From: an uncultured Acidobacteriota bacterium
Lineage (GTDB): Bacteria > Acidobacteriota > Polarisedimenticolia > J045
Length of the DNA stretch: 64,000 nt
Direction of reading: 5' to 3'
Assembly (NCBI GenBank): GCA_963702545.1
Contig: CAVPDB010000002.1
Location: 17,941-81,940 of the forward strand
The notes under the pieces were generated by a model. That model had not been told where the DNA came from. It saw only the letters and a program-made list of their open reading frames with translations, and made no database searches. Of the stretch, positions 24,470 through 31,016 are shown one piece after another. A program made the translations under genes and the position numbers. Numbering within the stretch: the first letter of the stretch is position 1; the number at the start of each line of letters is the position of its first letter.

Positions 24470-24925
24470 TTATCTTCTCGATGCCTGGGCGGGCGCGGGC
24501 GGCGCTAGCCCTTCTTCTTGTCCTGGGCCTCGGGTTCCTTCTCGGAGGCGATCACCGCAAAGTCTGGTTTGGTCGTCGTCTCGCCGGTGGCGGTGGTCGG
24601 CGTCCTTCTCGAGGACGGTGAAGACGCCGGTCGGCGTCTCGTGCCCCTTCTTCCCGGTCGAGACCGTCGTCGCCCCGATGATCACGCCGTTGCGGTAGAC
24701 GTTGGCGCGCTGGTCGGGGATCGAGACCACGATCACCAGCGGGCCGACGGGGGAGGCCTCCGGGTGCCAGACGTACTCGCCGGGCTTGAGCTGCTGCGGC
24801 GGGGCGGTCCGGGCCACCCCTTCGGTCGAGCCGGCCTTGGTCGGGACCTTCTCCGGGGCGGCGGCTGCGGGGAGGGCGGCCAAGGACGAGAGAGCCAGGA
24901 TCGAGAGCAGGGTACGGGTCGTCAT
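24470..24925 (-). pseudogene. L,D-transpeptidase (YkuD domain), N-terminal fragment lacking the catalytic His/Cys half
   Basis: Signal peptide plus the first half of the YkuD domain (PLVIVVSIPDQRANVYRNGVIIGATTVSTGKKGHETPTGVFTVLEK). The sequence then loses all similarity: no ...MPY...HG...SHGC appears in any frame. An alternative frame ends at the TAG at about 24505. Confidence 0.5.
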
Positions 24926-25452: not shown

Positions 25453-25659
25453 TCAGTCCCGCGGCAGGAACCAGTCGATGTGGCCGCAGCGCTCGCAGAC
25501 GTGGATCGTCGCCTTCTTCCCGGCCCACTCCAGGTCGAAGAAGGCCAGCGCGCGGCCGCTCAGCATCGCCTCGCGGCTCCAGAATCGCTGGCCGCCGCAG
25601 ACGCTGCAGGTCAGCAGCTTGCCGGCGACTTCCACGCTCGAGATCTCGTGCTCTTTCAT
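25453..25659 (-). CDS. Small zinc-ribbon protein (CxxC...CxxC), last gene of the AmmeMemoRadiSam operon
   Basis: 68 aa: MKEHEISSVEVAGKLLTCSVCGGQRFWSREAMLSGRALAFFDLEWAGKKATIHVCERCGHIDWFLPRD. It has two CxxC pairs and lies 29 nt downstream of amrS on the same strand. Confidence 0.55.
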   Translation of the reverse strand: MKEHEISSVEVAGKLLTCSVCGGQRFWSREAMLSGRALAFFDLEWAGKKATIHVCERCGHIDWFLPRD

Positions 25660-25687
25660 CCCGTTCGCTCCTCGCTGGGGCCGGTGA

Positions 25688-26842
25688 TCAGGCCCAGATT
25701 CCCGGGATCGCGCGCCGGCAGTCCGGGCACGCCCCCTTTGCCAGTCGGTTTTCCAGCACGGCCATCCCGGTGCGGCGGATCACGATGCGTCCGCAGCCCG
25801 GGCAATAGGTGTGATTGCCGGCGTGTCCCGGCACGTTCCCGACGTAGACGAAGCGCAGCCCCTCGGCCCGCGCCGCGTCGCGGGCCCGTTCCAGCGTGGG
25901 CACCGGCGTCGGCGGGACGTTCATCAGCCGGTAGCTGGGATGGAAGCGCGTGAAGTGGACCGGCGTGTCGGGCCCGACGTCGTCGCGCACGAAGCGCGCG
26001 AGCTGGCGGACCTCGGCCTCGGCGTCGTTGCGGCCCGGGATCACCAGCACCACGATCTCGGTCCACAACCCGTGCTTCGTCAGCCGCTTCAACGTCTCCC
26101 GCACCGGCTTCATCTCGCCGCTGCACAAGTCCTTGTAGAAGCTCTCGGTGAAGGCCTTGAGGTCGACCTTGACCGCTCCCAGCAGCGGGGCCAGGTCCTT
26201 CAGCGGCTCCTCCAGCCACGAGCCGTTCGAGATCACGAGCGTCCGGACGCCGGCCGGCTTCGCCGCCGCCGCGATGTCGTAGACGAACTCCGACCAGACC
26301 ACCGGCTCGGTGTAGGTGCAGGCGATCGTCGGCGCCTCGTAACGCCGCGCGAGCTTCACCAGCTCGGCGGGCGTCACCGGGTGGGTCGTGACCTGCTCCG
26401 GCCGGGCCTGCGCGATCTCCCAGTTCTGGCAGAACCGGCACTCGTAGTTGCAGCCCGGCGCGGCCAGCGAGAGCGCGCTGGTGCCCGGCAGCACGTGGTA
26501 GAAGGGCTTCTTCTCGATCGGGTCCAGGTGGATCGATGCGACGCGCGAGTGGACCAGCGTGTAGTACTCGCCGTTGAGGTTGACCCGCACGCCGCAGGCG
26601 CCGCGCTCCTCGTGCGGCAGCTTGCACTTCTTCGGGCAGAGGCCGCACTCGATCCACTCGTCGGGCAGCGCCTTCCACCAGCGGGCCTTCGTCGCGGCGA
26701 GGCCGGTCGGCTCGGTCAGCGGGATCGCAGGCCCGGTGGCCGCGTCCTGCGCGAGGAGCCGGCCCGGCGCCAGGCAGGCGGCGCACCCGCCGGCCGCGAG
26801 GCCGCGCAGGACGAGCCGCCGCGCCGGGTCGATCCGCCTCAC
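25688..26842 (-). CDS. amrS: AmmeMemoRadiSam system radical SAM enzyme (AmrS) with an N-terminal Tat-like signal
   Basis: Within ORF 25688..27076(-). The start was chosen at the GTG (26842..26840) that overlaps the DUF362 stop as GTGA; no ATG or other start lies between it and the conserved N-terminus. The N-terminus RRIDPARRLVLRGLAAGGCAACLAPGRLLAQDAA is followed by the conserved core ARWWKALPDEWIECGLCPKKCKL...GACGVR...CNYECRFCQNWEIA... Confidence 0.8.
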   Translation of the reverse strand: MRRIDPARRLVLRGLAAGGCAACLAPGRLLAQDAATGPAIPLTEPTGLAATKARWWKALPDEWIECGLCPKKCKLPHEERGACGVRVNLNGEYYTLVHSRVASIHLDPIEKKPFYHVLPGTSALSLAAPGCNYECRFCQNWEIAQARPEQVTTHPVTPAELVKLARRYEAPTIACTYTEPVVWSEFVYDIAAAAKPAGVRTLVISNGSWLEEPLKDLAPLLGAVKVDLKAFTESFYKDLCSGEMKPVRETLKRLTKHGLWTEIVVLVIPGRNDAEAEVRQLARFVRDDVGPDTPVHFTRFHPSYRLMNVPPTPVPTLERARDAARAEGLRFVYVGNVPGHAGNHTYCPGCGRIVIRRTGMAVLENRLAKGACPDCRRAIPGIWA

Positions 26843-27840
26843 GCGTCGACCACCTCCACCCGCTCGAGTTCCGCCACGCCCAGCCCCTTCTTCGCCGCCG
26901 CGGCGATGTAGCGCGGAGCGCGTCCCTCGTCGGTCAGAGACTTCAGTCCCATCACCTTGCGCTGCGCCTCGATCTCGCGCCAACCGAGCGCGTCGATCGC
27001 GACCGGGTCGGTCGAGACCAGCGCGCCGCCCCAGGGCCAGGTCCACTTCGGGCTGCGCCCCGGGCCGGCGTTGCACTGCCCGATCGTTCCATCGACGACC
27101 GTCAGCCGCAGCTTCTTCGCGATCAGGGGCGACGCCGCGAGGTCCGGGATGTACGGGTTGCAGCCGTCGTCATGGTACTTGTTCGGGTTGTGGATCGCGC
27201 CGTACCAGTTCTTGAGCCCGTGCGAAACACCGGCCATCCCGTGGTCCTTGAGCACGCCGACGTTGATCAGCGCGGTGACCTCGTTCGCCAGGAGCTTCGC
27301 GAAACACGAGCCGCCGGCACCCCACTCGCGCGGCGCGGCCTCGTAGGCGTCGTCGGTCCCGACCACGCGCACGCCGCCGGTCTCCGCGAAGCCCGCGTTC
27401 TTCAGCTCGCGGCTGGTGCGGTCCCAGATCACGACCTGGCGCGCGGGGACGCCGGCGGCGATCAGCCACTCCGCGAGCTGCTGCACCAGCCGCGGCTGCG
27501 GCGACAGCCCCTTGCCGGCGATGCAGTTGACCTTGAGTGCGACGATGTCCGAGGGGCGGAACAGCTTGCGCATCGCGTCGACGGGGGTCTTCTCGCCAGC
27601 GGCGCGTGCGAGCGCGGCCCCCAGCGGGGCGAACGCGACCTCCGGGGCGACCGTGCCGTCGGCCGCCGTCCAGCCGGCGCGCCGCGCGCGCACGACGACC
27701 GGCTTGCCGGCGCCCCTGACCTCGGGAGCGGCGTGCGCGTCGCCGAGCGGCCCGCGCAGCAGGAAGGGCCCGGCGGCGGCCCCCGCCGCCCCGGCCAGGA
27801 TCAGCTTCAGCGCGTCGCGCCGTCCGCGGTCGAGCGTCAT
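26839..27840 (-). CDS. DUF362 domain protein with twin-arginine (Tat) signal
   Basis: The C-terminal 333 aa of ORF 26839..30348(-) start MTLDRGRRDALKLILAGAAGAAAGPFLLRGPLGDAHAAP (RRDALK Tat motif). Then comes the DUF362 core (...DIVALKVNCIAGKG...HGMAGVSHGLKNWYG...). Its ATG at 27840 overlaps the stop of the amrBA fusion. Confidence 0.7.
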   Translation of the reverse strand: MTLDRGRRDALKLILAGAAGAAAGPFLLRGPLGDAHAAPEVRGAGKPVVVRARRAGWTAADGTVAPEVAFAPLGAALARAAGEKTPVDAMRKLFRPSDIVALKVNCIAGKGLSPQPRLVQQLAEWLIAAGVPARQVVIWDRTSRELKNAGFAETGGVRVVGTDDAYEAAPREWGAGGSCFAKLLANEVTALINVGVLKDHGMAGVSHGLKNWYGAIHNPNKYHDDGCNPYIPDLAASPLIAKKLRLTVVDGTIGQCNAGPGRSPKWTWPWGGALVSTDPVAIDALGWREIEAQRKVMGLKSLTDEGRAPRYIAAAAKKGLGVAELERVEVVDA

Positions 27841-29444
27841 CCCTTCCTCCCATGCCCGGCTTCCTCGATGACCTGTCCCTCGAACACCGAGAACTTCGTC
27901 GACGGGTCGCGCCAGGCTGCGCCGTCCAGCCCGGCCTTGCGCGCCAGGTGCTCCAGCGTCTCTTCCAGCGTCCAGCCCTGCTCGCCCGGGACCTGCGGCA
28001 GGAAGACCGCGCGCCGCCCGTTTTGGTCGAGCAGGATCCCGTGCCGGCCGAGCTGGATCTCCTTCCAGGACGCGACCGGCCGCGGGACCGACAGGACCGT
28101 CACCTCGACCGCCAGCCGGTCCAGCTCCCCGGCCGCGACCGGGGTGAAGCGCGGGTCCTCGAGCGCGGCGTTGACGGCGGCGACGACGACCGCCTGGTGC
28201 AGCGGGTAGGCCGGCAGGACCTGGCCGATGCAGCCGCGCAGCTTGCCCAGCCGCGCGATCTCCTGCGGGTCGGTGCGCGAGAGCGTGACGAACACCCCCT
28301 GCATCCGGTCCAGCTCCGGCCGCGGCGGCAGCGCCGCCAGCTCGCGCTCGACGTCGTCGGTGCCGCGCAGCTCGGAGGTGATCGCGGCGCGCGCGAGCTT
28401 CACCAGCCGCGCCGACAGGTCGGCGTCGAGCGGCGGGGCGGTGGGTGGAGCGACCGGCGGCGCGGCGGGCACCCCCTCGACCCGCGGCGGCGGGACCGGC
28501 GGGTCGTAGAACGCCATCGCGGCGTAGCTGACCGAGTTGTCGTCCGCCATCCCGGGCAGGTCGATCGAGGCGTACTCGGCCAGCAGCACACCCTGCGCCT
28601 TCGGTGCGATCTTGCGCAGCAGCTCGGCCATCGTCGCCAGGCCGTGGCGGCCGCAGATCGTGTCGTCGGTCAGGTCGAGGTGCCGGCGGAAGGCCTCGGC
28701 GTCGACGCGCGCGAGCGCCGCGACCGCGGTGTCCTGGAGTTGCTGGATCTTGGCGCGCGCCACCGGCGCCGAGCGCCCGTACGGGGCGTAGCCGAAGCGC
28801 GGCCCGTAGTGCGTGAAGTCGGTCGAGAAGACGAACAGCGTCTTGCCGTCGTGGAGCGTCGCCAGCTTCGCGGCGAAGGCGCGCTCCTGCTCCGGGTCGG
28901 TGCCGCCGGCGAGGATCGGGACCAGCGTGAAGCTCCCCAGCGCCTGCTGCAGGAACGGCAGCTCGATCTCGACCGCGTGCTCTTCGTCTTCCGCACCGGG
29001 CACGAAGCGCGCCAGCCGGCCGTCGTCGAGCGCGCGGATCGCCTCGCGATCCAGCGGGATGTCGCCGAGCGGCGTGCGGTAGGCCGTCGCGTTGCTCAAC
29101 GAGAAGCCGCTGAAGCCGGCGTGGTGCGACGGCGCGACGACGACGACCCGGGTGAACTCGCCGCGCTTCACGGTCCGGAAGGCAGCGGCCGCGGCGGGCC
29201 CGGAGTAGCGCCAGCCGGCGTGCGGGACGACCAGCGCGATCGGCTTGCCGGCCGGTGCCGGCGCGGCGGCGGCCGCGGCGCGCAGCATCCGCGTCACCTC
29301 GGCCGCGGCGAGCGACGGCGAACCGGGGTACCACGACCCGGCGATCGCCGAGCGCCGCACGCCGGCGGTGGTCGCGGCGAGGGCGAGCAGCGGCAGCAGG
29401 CCCAGGAGCAGGAGAAGGAACGAGGGGACGACCGCGGCTCTCAT
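27837..29444 (-). CDS. amrB-amrA: AmmeMemoRadiSam system protein B (Memo-like) fused to protein A (AMMECR1 domain), with Sec signal peptide
   Basis: 535 aa with a signal peptide (MRAAVVPSFLLLLLGLLPLLALAATTAG). The Memo-like domain shows AGSWYPG...LVVPHAGWRYSG...FVFSTDFTHYG. A Pro-rich linker leads to the AMMECR1 domain (GVFVTLSRTD...LRGCIGQVLP...). Confidence 0.8.
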   Translation of the reverse strand: MRAAVVPSFLLLLLGLLPLLALAATTAGVRRSAIAGSWYPGSPSLAAAEVTRMLRAAAAAAPAPAGKPIALVVPHAGWRYSGPAAAAAFRTVKRGEFTRVVVVAPSHHAGFSGFSLSNATAYRTPLGDIPLDREAIRALDDGRLARFVPGAEDEEHAVEIELPFLQQALGSFTLVPILAGGTDPEQERAFAAKLATLHDGKTLFVFSTDFTHYGPRFGYAPYGRSAPVARAKIQQLQDTAVAALARVDAEAFRRHLDLTDDTICGRHGLATMAELLRKIAPKAQGVLLAEYASIDLPGMADDNSVSYAAMAFYDPPVPPPRVEGVPAAPPVAPPTAPPLDADLSARLVKLARAAITSELRGTDDVERELAALPPRPELDRMQGVFVTLSRTDPQEIARLGKLRGCIGQVLPAYPLHQAVVVAAVNAALEDPRFTPVAAGELDRLAVEVTVLSVPRPVASWKEIQLGRHGILLDQNGRRAVFLPQVPGEQGWTLEETLEHLARKAGLDGAAWRDPSTKFSVFEGQVIEEAGHGRKG

Positions 29445-29558
29445 GGTGCGACCCTCCGGACGGGAGAAGCCTAGGGTAGCGCAGAAGGAACCCCCCGGAA
29501 AAAGGAAAGGCCGCCCCGAAGGGCGGCCTTTCCCGCGAACCGGGAAGGAGGGAAAGGA

Positions 29559-30809
29559 TCAGACCCAGCCGCGGAGCTTGACCGCCTCGGCGACCCGGTT
29601 GACCGAGACGAGGTAGGCGGCGAGACGCAGGTGGACCTTCTCCTTGATCATCATGTCGTAGACCGCGTTGAAGGCGTTGGTCATCGCGTGGTCGAGGCGC
29701 TTGTGGACCTCTTCCAGGGACCAGTAGTAGTTGTAGGTGTTCTGCACCTGCTCGAAGTAGGAGACCGTCACGCCGCCGGCGTTGGCCAGGAAGTCGGGCA
29801 GCAGCAGGATGTTCTTCGAGGCCAGGACCTTGTCGGCTTCGGGGGTGGTCGGGCCGTTGGCCAGCTCGAGCACCACCTTGGACTTGATCTTGTCGACGTT
29901 GCGGTCGGTGATCTGGCCCTCGATCGCGGCCGGGATCAGCACGTCGCACTCGACGTAGAGGCAGTCGGCGGAGGCGGCGAGCGTCTCGGCCCCCTTGAAC
30001 CCCTTGATCGATCCGGTCTCGGTGAAGTGCTTGTGCAGCGCCGCGAAGTCCAACCCCTTCGGGTTGTACGCCGCGCCGTCCCACTCGCCGACGCACACGA
30101 CCTTGCCGCCGATCTCCTCGCTGATGATCTTGGCCGCGAACTAGCCGGCGTTGCCGAAGCCCTGGATCGAGTAGGTCGCCTTGGAGAGGTCGAGGCCGAT
30201 CTTCTTGGCCGCCTCGCGCAGCACGTAGAGGCCGCCGCGCGCGGTCGCGTCGCCACGCCCCTTGGAGCCGCCCAGCGCCAGCGGCTTGCCGGTGATCACG
30301 CCCGGCTCGGAGTGCCGCGTGATCATCTCGAACTCGTCCATCATCCACGCCATGATCTGCGGGGTGGTGTAGACGTCCGGCGCAGGAACGTCCTTGTGCA
30401 CGCCCAGGATCGGGCCCAGTGCGCGGACGTAGGCGCGGGCCAGCCGCTCCTTCTCGCCCTCGCTCATCTCCTTCGGGTTGCAGATCACGCCGCCCTTGCC
30501 GCCGCCCAGCGGGATGTCCACCACCGCGGTCTTCCAGGTCATCCAGGCCGCGAGCGCGCGCACGGTGTCGATCGTCTCGTCCGGATGCCAGCGGATGCCG
30601 CCCTTGGCCGGGCCGCGCGCGATGTTGTACTGGACGCGGAAGCCGTGGAAGATCTTCGTCTTGCCGTCGTCCATCTTCACGGGAACGAAGAAGTGGTGCT
30701 CCATCTGCGGGACGCGCAGGAACTGGTGCGTGGCGTGGTCGAGGCCGAGGCGTGCGGCGGCCTCGTCCAACTGCGCCTGCGCGATCTTGAAGGGATTGAG
30801 CTCGGACAT
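29559..30809 (-). CDS. gdhA: NADP/NAD glutamate dehydrogenase (GdhA) interrupted by an in-frame TAG at 30143..30141
   Basis: ORFs 30141..30881(-) and 29559..30098(-) are in the same frame. Together they read ...SIQGFGNAG[TAG][31 protein letters not shown]..., where a conserved Tyr (TAC) is expected at the stop. The start was chosen at [17 protein letters not shown] (ATG 30809, GGAGG SD). Confidence 0.8.
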
Positions 30810-30859
30810 GGGTTTCCTCCGGTCGAACAGGGATGGGCGGGTGTCCCGGGCTGTCGGGA

Positions 30860-30873
30860 CGAAACGCGTTTCG
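30860..30873. promoter_or_regulatory. Perfect 14-bp palindrome CGAAACGCGTTTCG about 50 nt upstream of the gdhA start (candidate operator)
   Basis: Read directly from the sequence (ctgtcgggaCGAAACGCGTTTCGatccg). It sits in the gdhA 5' region on the minus strand. Confidence 0.4.
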
Positions 30874-31016
30874 ATCCGCAATCGGTGGGGAGGGGAATTC
30901 TAATCCGTTCGGGCGAGGCGCACTAGGCCCCCCAAAGCGTTTGCTGAAATCGCCTTTTGGGCGATTGAAGTGCGATTAACAGGCCCACCGAACCGATTAG
31001 TCCCGGGCGGTCCAGG

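Follow-up and report, generated by a model that had tools for sequence, protein, structure and literature searches.

An AmmeMemoRadiSam operon of an uncultured Acidobacteriota bacterium with export-type leaders on its radical SAM enzyme and partner proteins

Memo and AMMECR1 occur from archaea to humans and are linked to human disease; the main handle on their biochemistry is a bacterial three-gene system, AmmeMemoRadiSam, in which they accompany AmrS, a radical S-adenosylmethionine (SAM) enzyme. Burroughs et al. (2019) reportedly tied this system to the modification of nucleotide bases or isoprenoids. Radical SAM chemistry is treated as cytoplasmic because both SAM and a low-potential reductant are needed for it, and canonical AmrS members from archaea and many bacteria are leaderless. 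Here we describe an AmmeMemoRadiSam operon at positions 25453–29444 of a 64,000-nucleotide stretch (the window) of contig CAVPDB010000002.1, from an uncultured Acidobacteriota bacterium (assembly GCA_963702545.1). Judging from its sequence, we consider it somewhat probable that this operon encodes an extracytoplasmic variant of the system, either periplasmic or membrane-facing.

The AmmeMemoRadiSam system itself is already known, as is the Memo-AMMECR1 gene fusion, which was noted in 2007 in the same work that predicted an RNA base as the target of modification (Balaji & Aravind 2007, PMC2034487). Our literature search found no paper establishing the function of the system, and none that reports export signals on its proteins, a partnership with DUF362, or a radical SAM enzyme that is exported by Tat (twin-arginine translocation) or located in the periplasm. 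The original prediction for this locus had remarked that an exported version is not how the system is usually described, and the search agrees, although the 2019 analysis may mention secreted or membrane forms.

Export-type leaders on three proteins

Read from the sequence, four co-directional genes run from 29444 to 25453 on the minus strand, on which all window features given here lie. A Memo+AMMECR1 (AmrB+AmrA) fusion gene (27837–29444, ATG start, 535 amino acids) is followed by a DUF362 gene (26839–27840, 333 amino acids), the AmrS radical SAM gene (25688–26842, 384 amino acids) and a gene for a 68-amino-acid zinc-ribbon protein. The first three are joined by 4-nucleotide start/stop overlaps, the ATG of DUF362 overlapping the fusion stop as ATGA and the GTG of AmrS overlapping the DUF362 stop as GTGA. 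The starts of all four genes are those of public gene calls for identical proteins. The original prediction had described these exact overlaps, together with a Sec-type signal on the fusion and twin-arginine (RR) leaders on DUF362 and AmrS, and all are present in the sequence as described. Its domain assignments, made without database searches, also held in hidden Markov model (HMM) searches, where all four families scored above their curated cut-offs. AmrB (TIGR04336) reached 193 bits against a cut-off of 26 over fusion residues 30–312 (PF01875, 170.7 bits), and AmrA (TIGR04335) 153 bits against 99 over residues 346–525 (PF01871, 164 bits). AmrS matched TIGR04337 with 343 bits against 220 over residues 53–383 and PF04055 with 71 bits against 29.5, and the DUF362 protein matched PF04015 with 77.9 bits against a gathering cut-off of 24.

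The predicted Tat-like leader of AmrS (26750–26842) spans residues 1–31, MRRIDPARRLVLRGLAAGGCAACLAPGRLLA/QD (the slash marks a putative cleavage site), and a variable linker extends from there to residue 52. It contains ARRLVLR, then GLAAGGCAACLAPG and then LLA/QD, with 14 uncharged residues after ARRLVLR. In-frame ATG, GTG or TTG codons lie at 27076, 27046, 26983, 26842, 26590 (inside the core) and 26494. As the original prediction had claimed, none falls between the GTG at 26842 and the CxxCxxxC core, so that translation has to include 52 or more additional residues. The extension is thus real and translated as predicted, with the correction that the stretch preceding the TIGR04337 match is 52 residues long rather than 45.

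This leader is conserved. Among the 120 closest AmrS homologues (59–96% identity; Acidobacteriota, Myxococcota and ‘Deltaproteobacteria’), 113 have an RR and, after it, an uncharged stretch of 12 residues or more, so the extension is kept in related genomes, and the RR is invariant in an alignment of 78 AmrS sequences. Of the 113 homologues, 89 have F, L or V as the second residue past the RR and 101 have L, V or I directly after that, which at the sequence level is the RRxFL pattern of Tat signals. Roughly 27 residues past the RR, 92/114 homologues have an AxA-like site, with -3 taken by A, L, V or S and -1 by a small residue, after which come Q or E and then D or E. When we cut 44 diverse AmrS leaders out of their proteins and scanned them in isolation against curated family models, 26 matched TIGR01409 (best match 9.8e-7), 15 TIGR02811, 12 PF10518, seven a Rieske Tat signal and four the PetC transmembrane anchor; no model outside the Tat-signal and Rieske N-terminal anchor types recurred in 4/44 leaders or more. 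The conservation of the RR across homologues means that the leader is not a product of chance, and by the same measure it is under selection.

An ordinary cytoplasmic operon, in which the apparent signals are mis-called starts or noise from high-GC reading frames, would be an alternative. The region has a GC content of ~72% and long spurious open reading frames (ORFs) overlap the operon, which is the kind of setting that would favor such an error. Against it stand the lack of any alternative in-frame start before the AmrS core, the agreement of the starts with public calls, and the conservation of the leaders' protein sequences across hundreds of homologues, low-GC organisms included. We regard this explanation as extremely improbable and effectively refuted already.

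Downstream of its leader, AmrS is a recognizable member of its family. The catalytic core (25691–26686, residues 53–384) follows the extent of TIGR04337 and is modeled by AlphaFold2 with a predicted local distance difference test score (pLDDT) above 90, against 90 for the whole protein; residues 1–48 form a low-confidence helix plus coil that is not packed on the confident core. Invariant in the 78-sequence alignment are C131/C135/C138 (CxxxCxxC), C66/C69/C73/C83 and C347/C350/C372/C375, from which we infer one radical-SAM cluster and two further four-cysteine sites. The closest solved fold to the core is PflA (3cb8; template-modeling score 0.80 on the target, E 6e-15, 19% identity), and partial HMM matches to activase families score far under the cut-offs of those families.

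The fusion protein begins with a predicted Sec-type signal peptide (29376–29444, residues 1–23, MRAAVVPSFLLLLLGLLPLLALA/ATT) in which M-R is followed by a 21-residue hydrophobic core and then by ALA/ATT. It has the n-, h- and c-region architecture of such signals, with an AxA site at residues 21–24, is uncharged over residues 3–29, and reaches a best 12-residue Kyte-Doolittle mean of 2.92. Both the Memo model and the alignment with human MEMO1 begin at residue 30, after the predicted signal. The Memo domain (28509–29357, residues 30–312) aligns with MEMO1 (7kq8) over residues 30–311 (E 3e-38), and its PHAG, SHH, DFxHxG and ICGRH motifs line up with their MEMO1 counterparts. After a Pro-rich linker comes the AMMECR1 domain (27870–28409, residues 346–525), which contains the LRGCIG motif and aligns with PH0010 (1vaj, E 2e-30).

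The DUF362 protein has a putative twin-arginine leader (27730–27840, residues 1–37, MTLDRGRRDALKLILAGAAGAAAGPFLLRGPLGDAHA/AP), with GRRDALK, 16 uncharged residues and AHA/AP in succession, which scores 14.5 bits against TIGR01409, under the cut-off of 16.7. An RR lies within the first 35 residues in 110/119 DUF362 homologues, at position 7 in most of the full-length ones, and in some homologues a lipobox follows the hydrophobic (h) region (VTGC/AKG, for example). The AlphaFold2 model of DUF362 (pLDDT 89) has low pLDDT over residues 1–45, with the leader detached from the confident core. Significant fold matches to this model in the PDB are limited to LarA-type nickel-pincer enzymes (E 5e-6 to 9e-4, 13–15% identity, ~250 aligned columns). 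At the sequence level, a DUF362 profile search of PDB sequences gave no meaningful match and none to LarA structures, and LarA_N (DUF2088, PF09861) does not match the protein. It is a matter of speculation that DUF362 holds a complex cofactor, which would explain its Tat leader.

Partner genes, fusions and flanking genes

We surveyed AmrS loci in a scan for AmrS relatives that took one genome from each species, and added seven contigs. This gave 87 loci, 86 of which enter the table of leader classes; N-termini were read in frame and classed by a simple rule, with five corrected by eye. AmrS has a Tat-like leader in 38/86 loci, from Acidobacteriota, KSB1, Zixibacteria, Poribacteria, Planctomycetota, Omnitrophota, Desulfobacterota, Myxococcota and Chloroflexia. 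Another 12 have Sec-like, lipobox or hydrophobic N-termini (L013, L016, L022, L025, L027, L030, L031, L038, L043, L044, L054 and L032), mostly in Omnitrophota and with one Chlamydiae genome among them, and the remaining 36 are leaderless, found in archaea, Bacillota and some Desulfobacterota. Memo-AMMECR1 is a fusion in nearly all surveyed loci. Of the 23 Memo proteins that adjoin a leader-bearing AmrS, the set on which conservation of the fusion signal rests, 22 have a hydrophobic or lipobox N-terminus.

The original prediction had named DUF362 as an extra component, and the survey supports this. A DUF362 gene lies directly upstream of AmrS in 18/38 Tat-type loci versus 0/48 others (nominal p = 2e-8, the survey loci being drawn from more than ten phyla and not phylogenetically independent), and the 4-nucleotide overlap between DUF362 and AmrS recurs in all seven contexts with called genes. 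The gene order of the window is repeated in L012, L009, L049, L081 and L083–L087. By this pattern of neighborhoods, DUF362 is a real and specific partner of Tat-type AmrS.

Other neighbors recur as well. The most frequent of them in systems of the exported type is a gene for a polytopic protein of ~750 amino acids with a central spermidine-synthase-fold PF01564 domain, present in 34/86 loci (examples at L083:7265-9526, L087:7152-9527 and L001:10685-13093, all on the minus strand). In 30 of these 34 loci AmrS bears a leader, and in the other four a leaderless AmrS stands beside a signal-bearing Memo-AMMECR1. The gene is present in L087, which has 81% AmrS identity to the window and the same gdh-amr synteny. 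An apparent neighbor in 21 loci that we had provisionally called UnkA was rejected, as it is the antisense shadow of this PF01564 gene. DUF6599 is another recurrent neighbor, and in one Acidobacteriota operon (L085:3509-4968) genes for the alpha and beta parts of a class I fumarate hydratase (PF05681 and PF05683) lie between Memo-AMMECR1 and DUF362-AmrS.

Genes with a possible role in electron transfer form a further group. A gene for DsbD_2, a CcdA-like thiol-reductant transporter, lies beside AmrS in 10/12 loci of the Sec-like or hydrophobic class versus 0/74 others, and a gene for a NapH-like Fer4_5 (PF12801) polyferredoxin is present in 10 loci. At L081:1996-3438, L085:296-1873 and L001:4359-6050, the NapH-like protein has one ferredoxin domain, next an internal RRxxLGAALAGAAL segment, which looks like a Tat-type transmembrane segment, and after it a second ferredoxin domain with 16 Cys. 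These two-ferredoxin proteins resemble NapH and NapG in one chain and are possible transmembrane electron wires.

AmrS itself is fused to diverse domains in its relatives. Among 149 best 50%-identity cluster representatives examined for N-termini and fusions, ~35 have Tat-like and ~10 hydrophobic N-termini. One joins a signal, Memo, AMMECR1 and AmrS in a single polypeptide (P0340); others place AmrS behind a signal and CBM11 (P0311) or behind a signal and a beta-propeller (P0308). In P0312 an RR-containing transmembrane segment precedes an FMN_bind domain with a DAVSGAT flavinylation-type motif and AmrS, with no transmembrane segment between the two domains, and a DsbD_2+Fer4_5 gene lies upstream. 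P0310 combines DsbD_2, FMN_bind, Fer4_5 and AmrS. The NosR-like fusions P0298, P0303 and P0310 were not used as evidence of topology, as a crude hydropathy count of transmembrane segments cannot fix the side on which AmrS lies. A 1058-amino-acid ‘Fer4_5-Memo-AMMECR1 fusion’ in L082 was likewise set aside as a frameshift artefact, its residues 330–520 being Arg/Pro-rich nonsense after which Memo restarts with a signal of its own. Leaderless single chains of 900–1150 amino acids in the order AmrS-AMMECR1-Memo also exist (P0330, P0339, P0355, P0366, P0369, P0375, P0396, P0408, P0414, P0419, P0426 and P0427). They appear to be a separate, cytoplasmic branch with a domain order opposite to that of the exported Memo-AMMECR1(-AmrS) fusions, and their existence means that cytoplasmic versions are common too.

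The zinc-ribbon protein, by comparison, is probably a lineage-specific neighbor outside the system. Its gene (25453–25659, Shine-Dalgarno GAGGAG) encodes 68 amino acids with two CxxC pairs (C18/C21 and C55/C58) and no signal. The original prediction placed it after a 29-nucleotide gap, which is in fact 28 nucleotides (25660–25687), and counted it as a further component of the system. A fourth component, such as a regulator, a redox partner or a chaperone for Tat proofreading, would fit a gene on the same strand so close downstream of AmrS, with its own Shine-Dalgarno sequence and no terminator found between them by scanning. The gene keeps this position within the cluster of >90% identity and in L087, where its product is 56% identical. 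It is missing downstream of AmrS in six contexts at 60–68% AmrS identity, however, and no homologue was found in L001–L086 at E 1e-4 to 1e-5. Because it is limited to close relatives, the gene is probably not a system component. The protein matches no family at its cut-off (Zn-ribbon_13/DUF2082, PF09855, reaches 13.7 bits against 23), and its source annotations read nucleic-acid-binding Zn-ribbon or DNA-binding protein. We therefore consider a role in the system quite improbable.

On its upstream side the operon directly follows a terminator. The glutamate dehydrogenase gene gdh ends at 29559, and after it a putative intrinsic terminator (29497–29533) forms a 13-bp GC-rich stem, GGAAAGGCCGCCC/GGGCGGCCTTTCC, with a TTCG loop and a T-run, marking the 5' boundary of a unit of four co-transcribable genes. 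A scan with consensus terminators gave only a weaker overlapping hairpin at 29509-29491. A candidate Shine-Dalgarno sequence, GGAGGG (29452–29457), lies 7 nucleotides upstream of the fusion ATG. The gdh gene (29559-30881, minus strand) has an in-frame TAG at 30141-30143 (GFGNAG*FAAKII), reflecting either a pseudogene or an assembly error; its L087 orthologue is intact at 416 amino acids. Beyond the zinc-ribbon gene, the ORF at 24470-24925 (minus strand) has a signal peptide, an L,D-transpeptidase-like N-terminal half and an Arg/Asp-rich C-terminus that looks frameshifted. Together with the amber codon in gdh, this may point to some errors in the assembled sequence.

The side of the membrane on which AmrS acts

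In an extracytoplasmic variant of the system, the Memo-AMMECR1 fusion would cross the membrane unfolded via Sec, be cut after Ala23 and acquire its metal outside the cytoplasm. DUF362, with its LarA-like fold, and AmrS would fold and gain their cofactors in the cytoplasm and would then be exported by Tat, with cleavage at AHA/A and LLA/QD, respectively; alternatively, AmrS may be retained by its leader as a Rieske-like signal anchor. Use of the Tat pathway suits an enzyme with several Fe-S clusters. Once outside, the PflA-like AmrS could initiate radical chemistry on a substrate that belongs to the envelope or is embedded in the membrane, and this substrate would be processed further by Memo, with a LigB-type metal site, and AMMECR1, with a conserved Cys. 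DUF362 would act as a partner specific to Tat-type AmrS, probably in complex with it. Electrons may reach the outside through a NapH-like polyferredoxin, FMN_bind or DsbD_2/CcdA, a route suggested by the relatives only. SAM might already be in place when the enzyme is exported and then serve catalytically, or it might be delivered by some other route.

The broader proposal is that the AmrS family has a whole branch of radical SAM enzymes whose place of work lies outside the cytoplasm. Tat, or Sec in some lineages, would deliver them, dedicated transmembrane conduits would re-reduce them, and exported Memo, AMMECR1 and DUF362 partners would join them on an envelope or membrane substrate. We advance this tentatively, as a serious possibility that stops a little short of probable. 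The candidate branch makes up about one in four of the 149 closest 50%-identity cluster representatives, and its members come from more than ten bacterial phyla.

Several observations weigh against an exported AmrS. We know of no exported radical SAM enzyme, the class being known to us only from the cytoplasm, and to our knowledge neither SAM nor low-potential reductants occur in the periplasm. Genes resembling nuoL/M/N of complex I lie near the operon, and if the host respires aerobically an oxygen-labile cluster would be exposed in its periplasm. None of the NapH-like, DsbD_2, DUF6599 or PF01564 proteins was found in the 64-kb window by tblastn. The leader in the window is also a weak Tat match: it matches neither TIGR01409 nor PF10518, TIGR02811 is sub-threshold (E 0.014), and in its ARRLVL motif an Arg sits inside the flank of the h-region. 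That the survey loci share ancestry limits what their counts can carry. Some 12 loci, moreover, bear Sec-type rather than Tat-type N-termini on AmrS, an Fe-S enzyme, which is difficult to square with an enzyme that receives its cofactors ahead of export, and in L036, L045, L050 and L069 a leaderless AmrS accompanies a signal- or lipobox-bearing Memo-AMMECR1. In these four loci AmrS starts a few residues before CxxCxxxC, with the PF01564 protein also adjoining. The parts of a single system seem here to be predicted for opposite faces of the membrane, and a shared compartment is thus not needed for the trio in every case.

The composition of the leader adds a further difficulty. The AmrS h-region is Cys-rich, with at least one Cys in 112/113 close homologues and at least two in 80/113, and this holds in distant phyla too (P0001–P0120; L001–L058). 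The DUF362 leaders of these operons are unlike it, 89/104 having no Cys at all. Such an h-region is atypical of Tat signals, which suggests an additional or different role for the leader. We considered whether a leader Cys in the window could belong to a lipobox, and rejected this under a PROSITE-like rule, given R13 in the uncharged stretch and C20 at -3 of C23; plausible lipoboxes are present in a few AmrS relatives.

These points bear on an alternative in which AmrS stays on the cytoplasmic side and only DUF362 and the fusion are truly exported. Its RR leader would then be a Tat-like peptide that is vestigial or binds a chaperone, as in NarG, or else would tether the enzyme to the membrane. 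AmrS would mature DUF362, the fusion or both ahead of their export, or would modify an inner-leaflet lipid-linked substrate that is processed outside later. Such a placement accommodates the cytoplasmic location of SAM, of flavodoxin or ferredoxin and of Fe-S assembly, as it does the Cys-rich h-region, the weak Tat match in the window and the leaderless AmrS of the four loci with signal- or lipobox-bearing Memo-AMMECR1. Radical SAM maturases of periplasm-bound proteins are known, among them the anaerobic sulfatase maturases, and PflA, the closest solved fold, is an activase with a protein substrate. The HXS antiphage system offers another such maturase (PMC13128918). The topology of P0323 is equivocal as well, since its single N-terminal transmembrane segment has flanking charges of +1/+1 by script and a downstream KKNEKVEVK that is more basic by eye, so that AmrS-Memo-AMMECR1 is not clearly outside.

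Other evidence speaks against a cytoplasmic-side AmrS. Its leaders have the full n-, h- and c-region architecture with an AxA-like site and match Tat-signal HMMs. AmrS is found behind signal peptides together with extracytoplasmic modules, namely CBM11, a beta-propeller and FMN_bind with SGAT, and also together with signal-bearing Memo-AMMECR1, and transmembrane electron conduits are fused to it or adjoin it. Were the leader a remnant signal, its RR would hardly be expected to stay invariant over more than ten phyla. On balance we judge a cytoplasmic-side AmrS possible but rather unlikely. The Sec-type Omnitrophota leaders are unexplained whether AmrS works outside or stays on the cytoplasmic side, because we know of no Fe-S enzymes that are exported unfolded.

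If an extracytoplasmic AmrS is borne out, it would be the first case of extracytoplasmic radical SAM chemistry, and RNA would be ruled out as the universal substrate of Memo and AMMECR1. Modification of an RNA base is hard to square with an extracytoplasmic location, and export signals on all components argue for a membrane or envelope substrate in this branch, against the earlier prediction (PMC2034487). An exported AmrS would raise the question of how SAM and electrons are delivered. DUF362, with its LarA-like fold, would gain a defined partner, and NapH-like, FMN_bind and DsbD_2 conduits would be tied to a new client enzyme.

Comparison with known systems

The conduit genes found with AmrS in relatives have a described counterpart. 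NapH-like, FMN_bind and DsbD modules make up an extracytosolic electron-transfer apparatus, which is proposed to pass electrons through the membrane to enzymes outside the cytosol (Meheust et al. 2021, PMC8238504). That paper makes no mention of Memo, AMMECR1 or DUF362, and a term search of it gave no radical SAM passage. Such modules adjoin or are fused to AmrS in relatives, whereas none is present in this window.

For DUF362, the likeness to a known system lies at the level of fold only. LarA-type nickel-pincer-nucleotide racemases (DUF2088) share Pfam clan CL0471 with DUF362 (PMC11770544), and LarA-family chains are the sole significant PDB matches of the DUF362 model. The matched LarA chains are 420–480 residues long, compared to 333 for DUF362, and there is no match at the sequence level.

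AmrS can be compared with three kinds of enzyme. Among the glycyl-radical activases, PflA is closest to it in fold, but AmrS has in addition a 4-Cys domain at its N-terminus and a CxxC…CxxC domain at its C-terminus, and the operon contains no glycyl-radical enzyme. PflA is cytoplasmic and has no leader. Tat-exported or Tat-anchored Fe-S proteins such as NapG, NrfC, the hydrogenase small subunits and Rieske proteins resemble AmrS in carrying an RR leader on a protein that needs its Fe-S clusters before transport, and several AmrS leaders match the Rieske Tat-signal model itself. These proteins are electron carriers, however, and AmrS leaders are set apart from theirs by a Cys-rich h-region; we know of no radical SAM enzyme, with SAM as co-substrate, among Tat substrates. 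Cytoplasmic radical SAM maturases, including the sulfatase maturases and HXS (PMC13128918), are similar in that the radical SAM gene lies in a cluster that also encodes periplasmic proteins. The enzyme in those systems has no export signal, and AmrS here carries one.

The closest system remains canonical AmmeMemoRadiSam (TIGR04335/04336/04337). All three of its families are found here above their cut-offs, clustered together and with their signature motifs kept. What distinguishes this operon is the presence of export signals on all three and the insertion of a Tat-tagged DUF362 gene that is coupled to AmrS.

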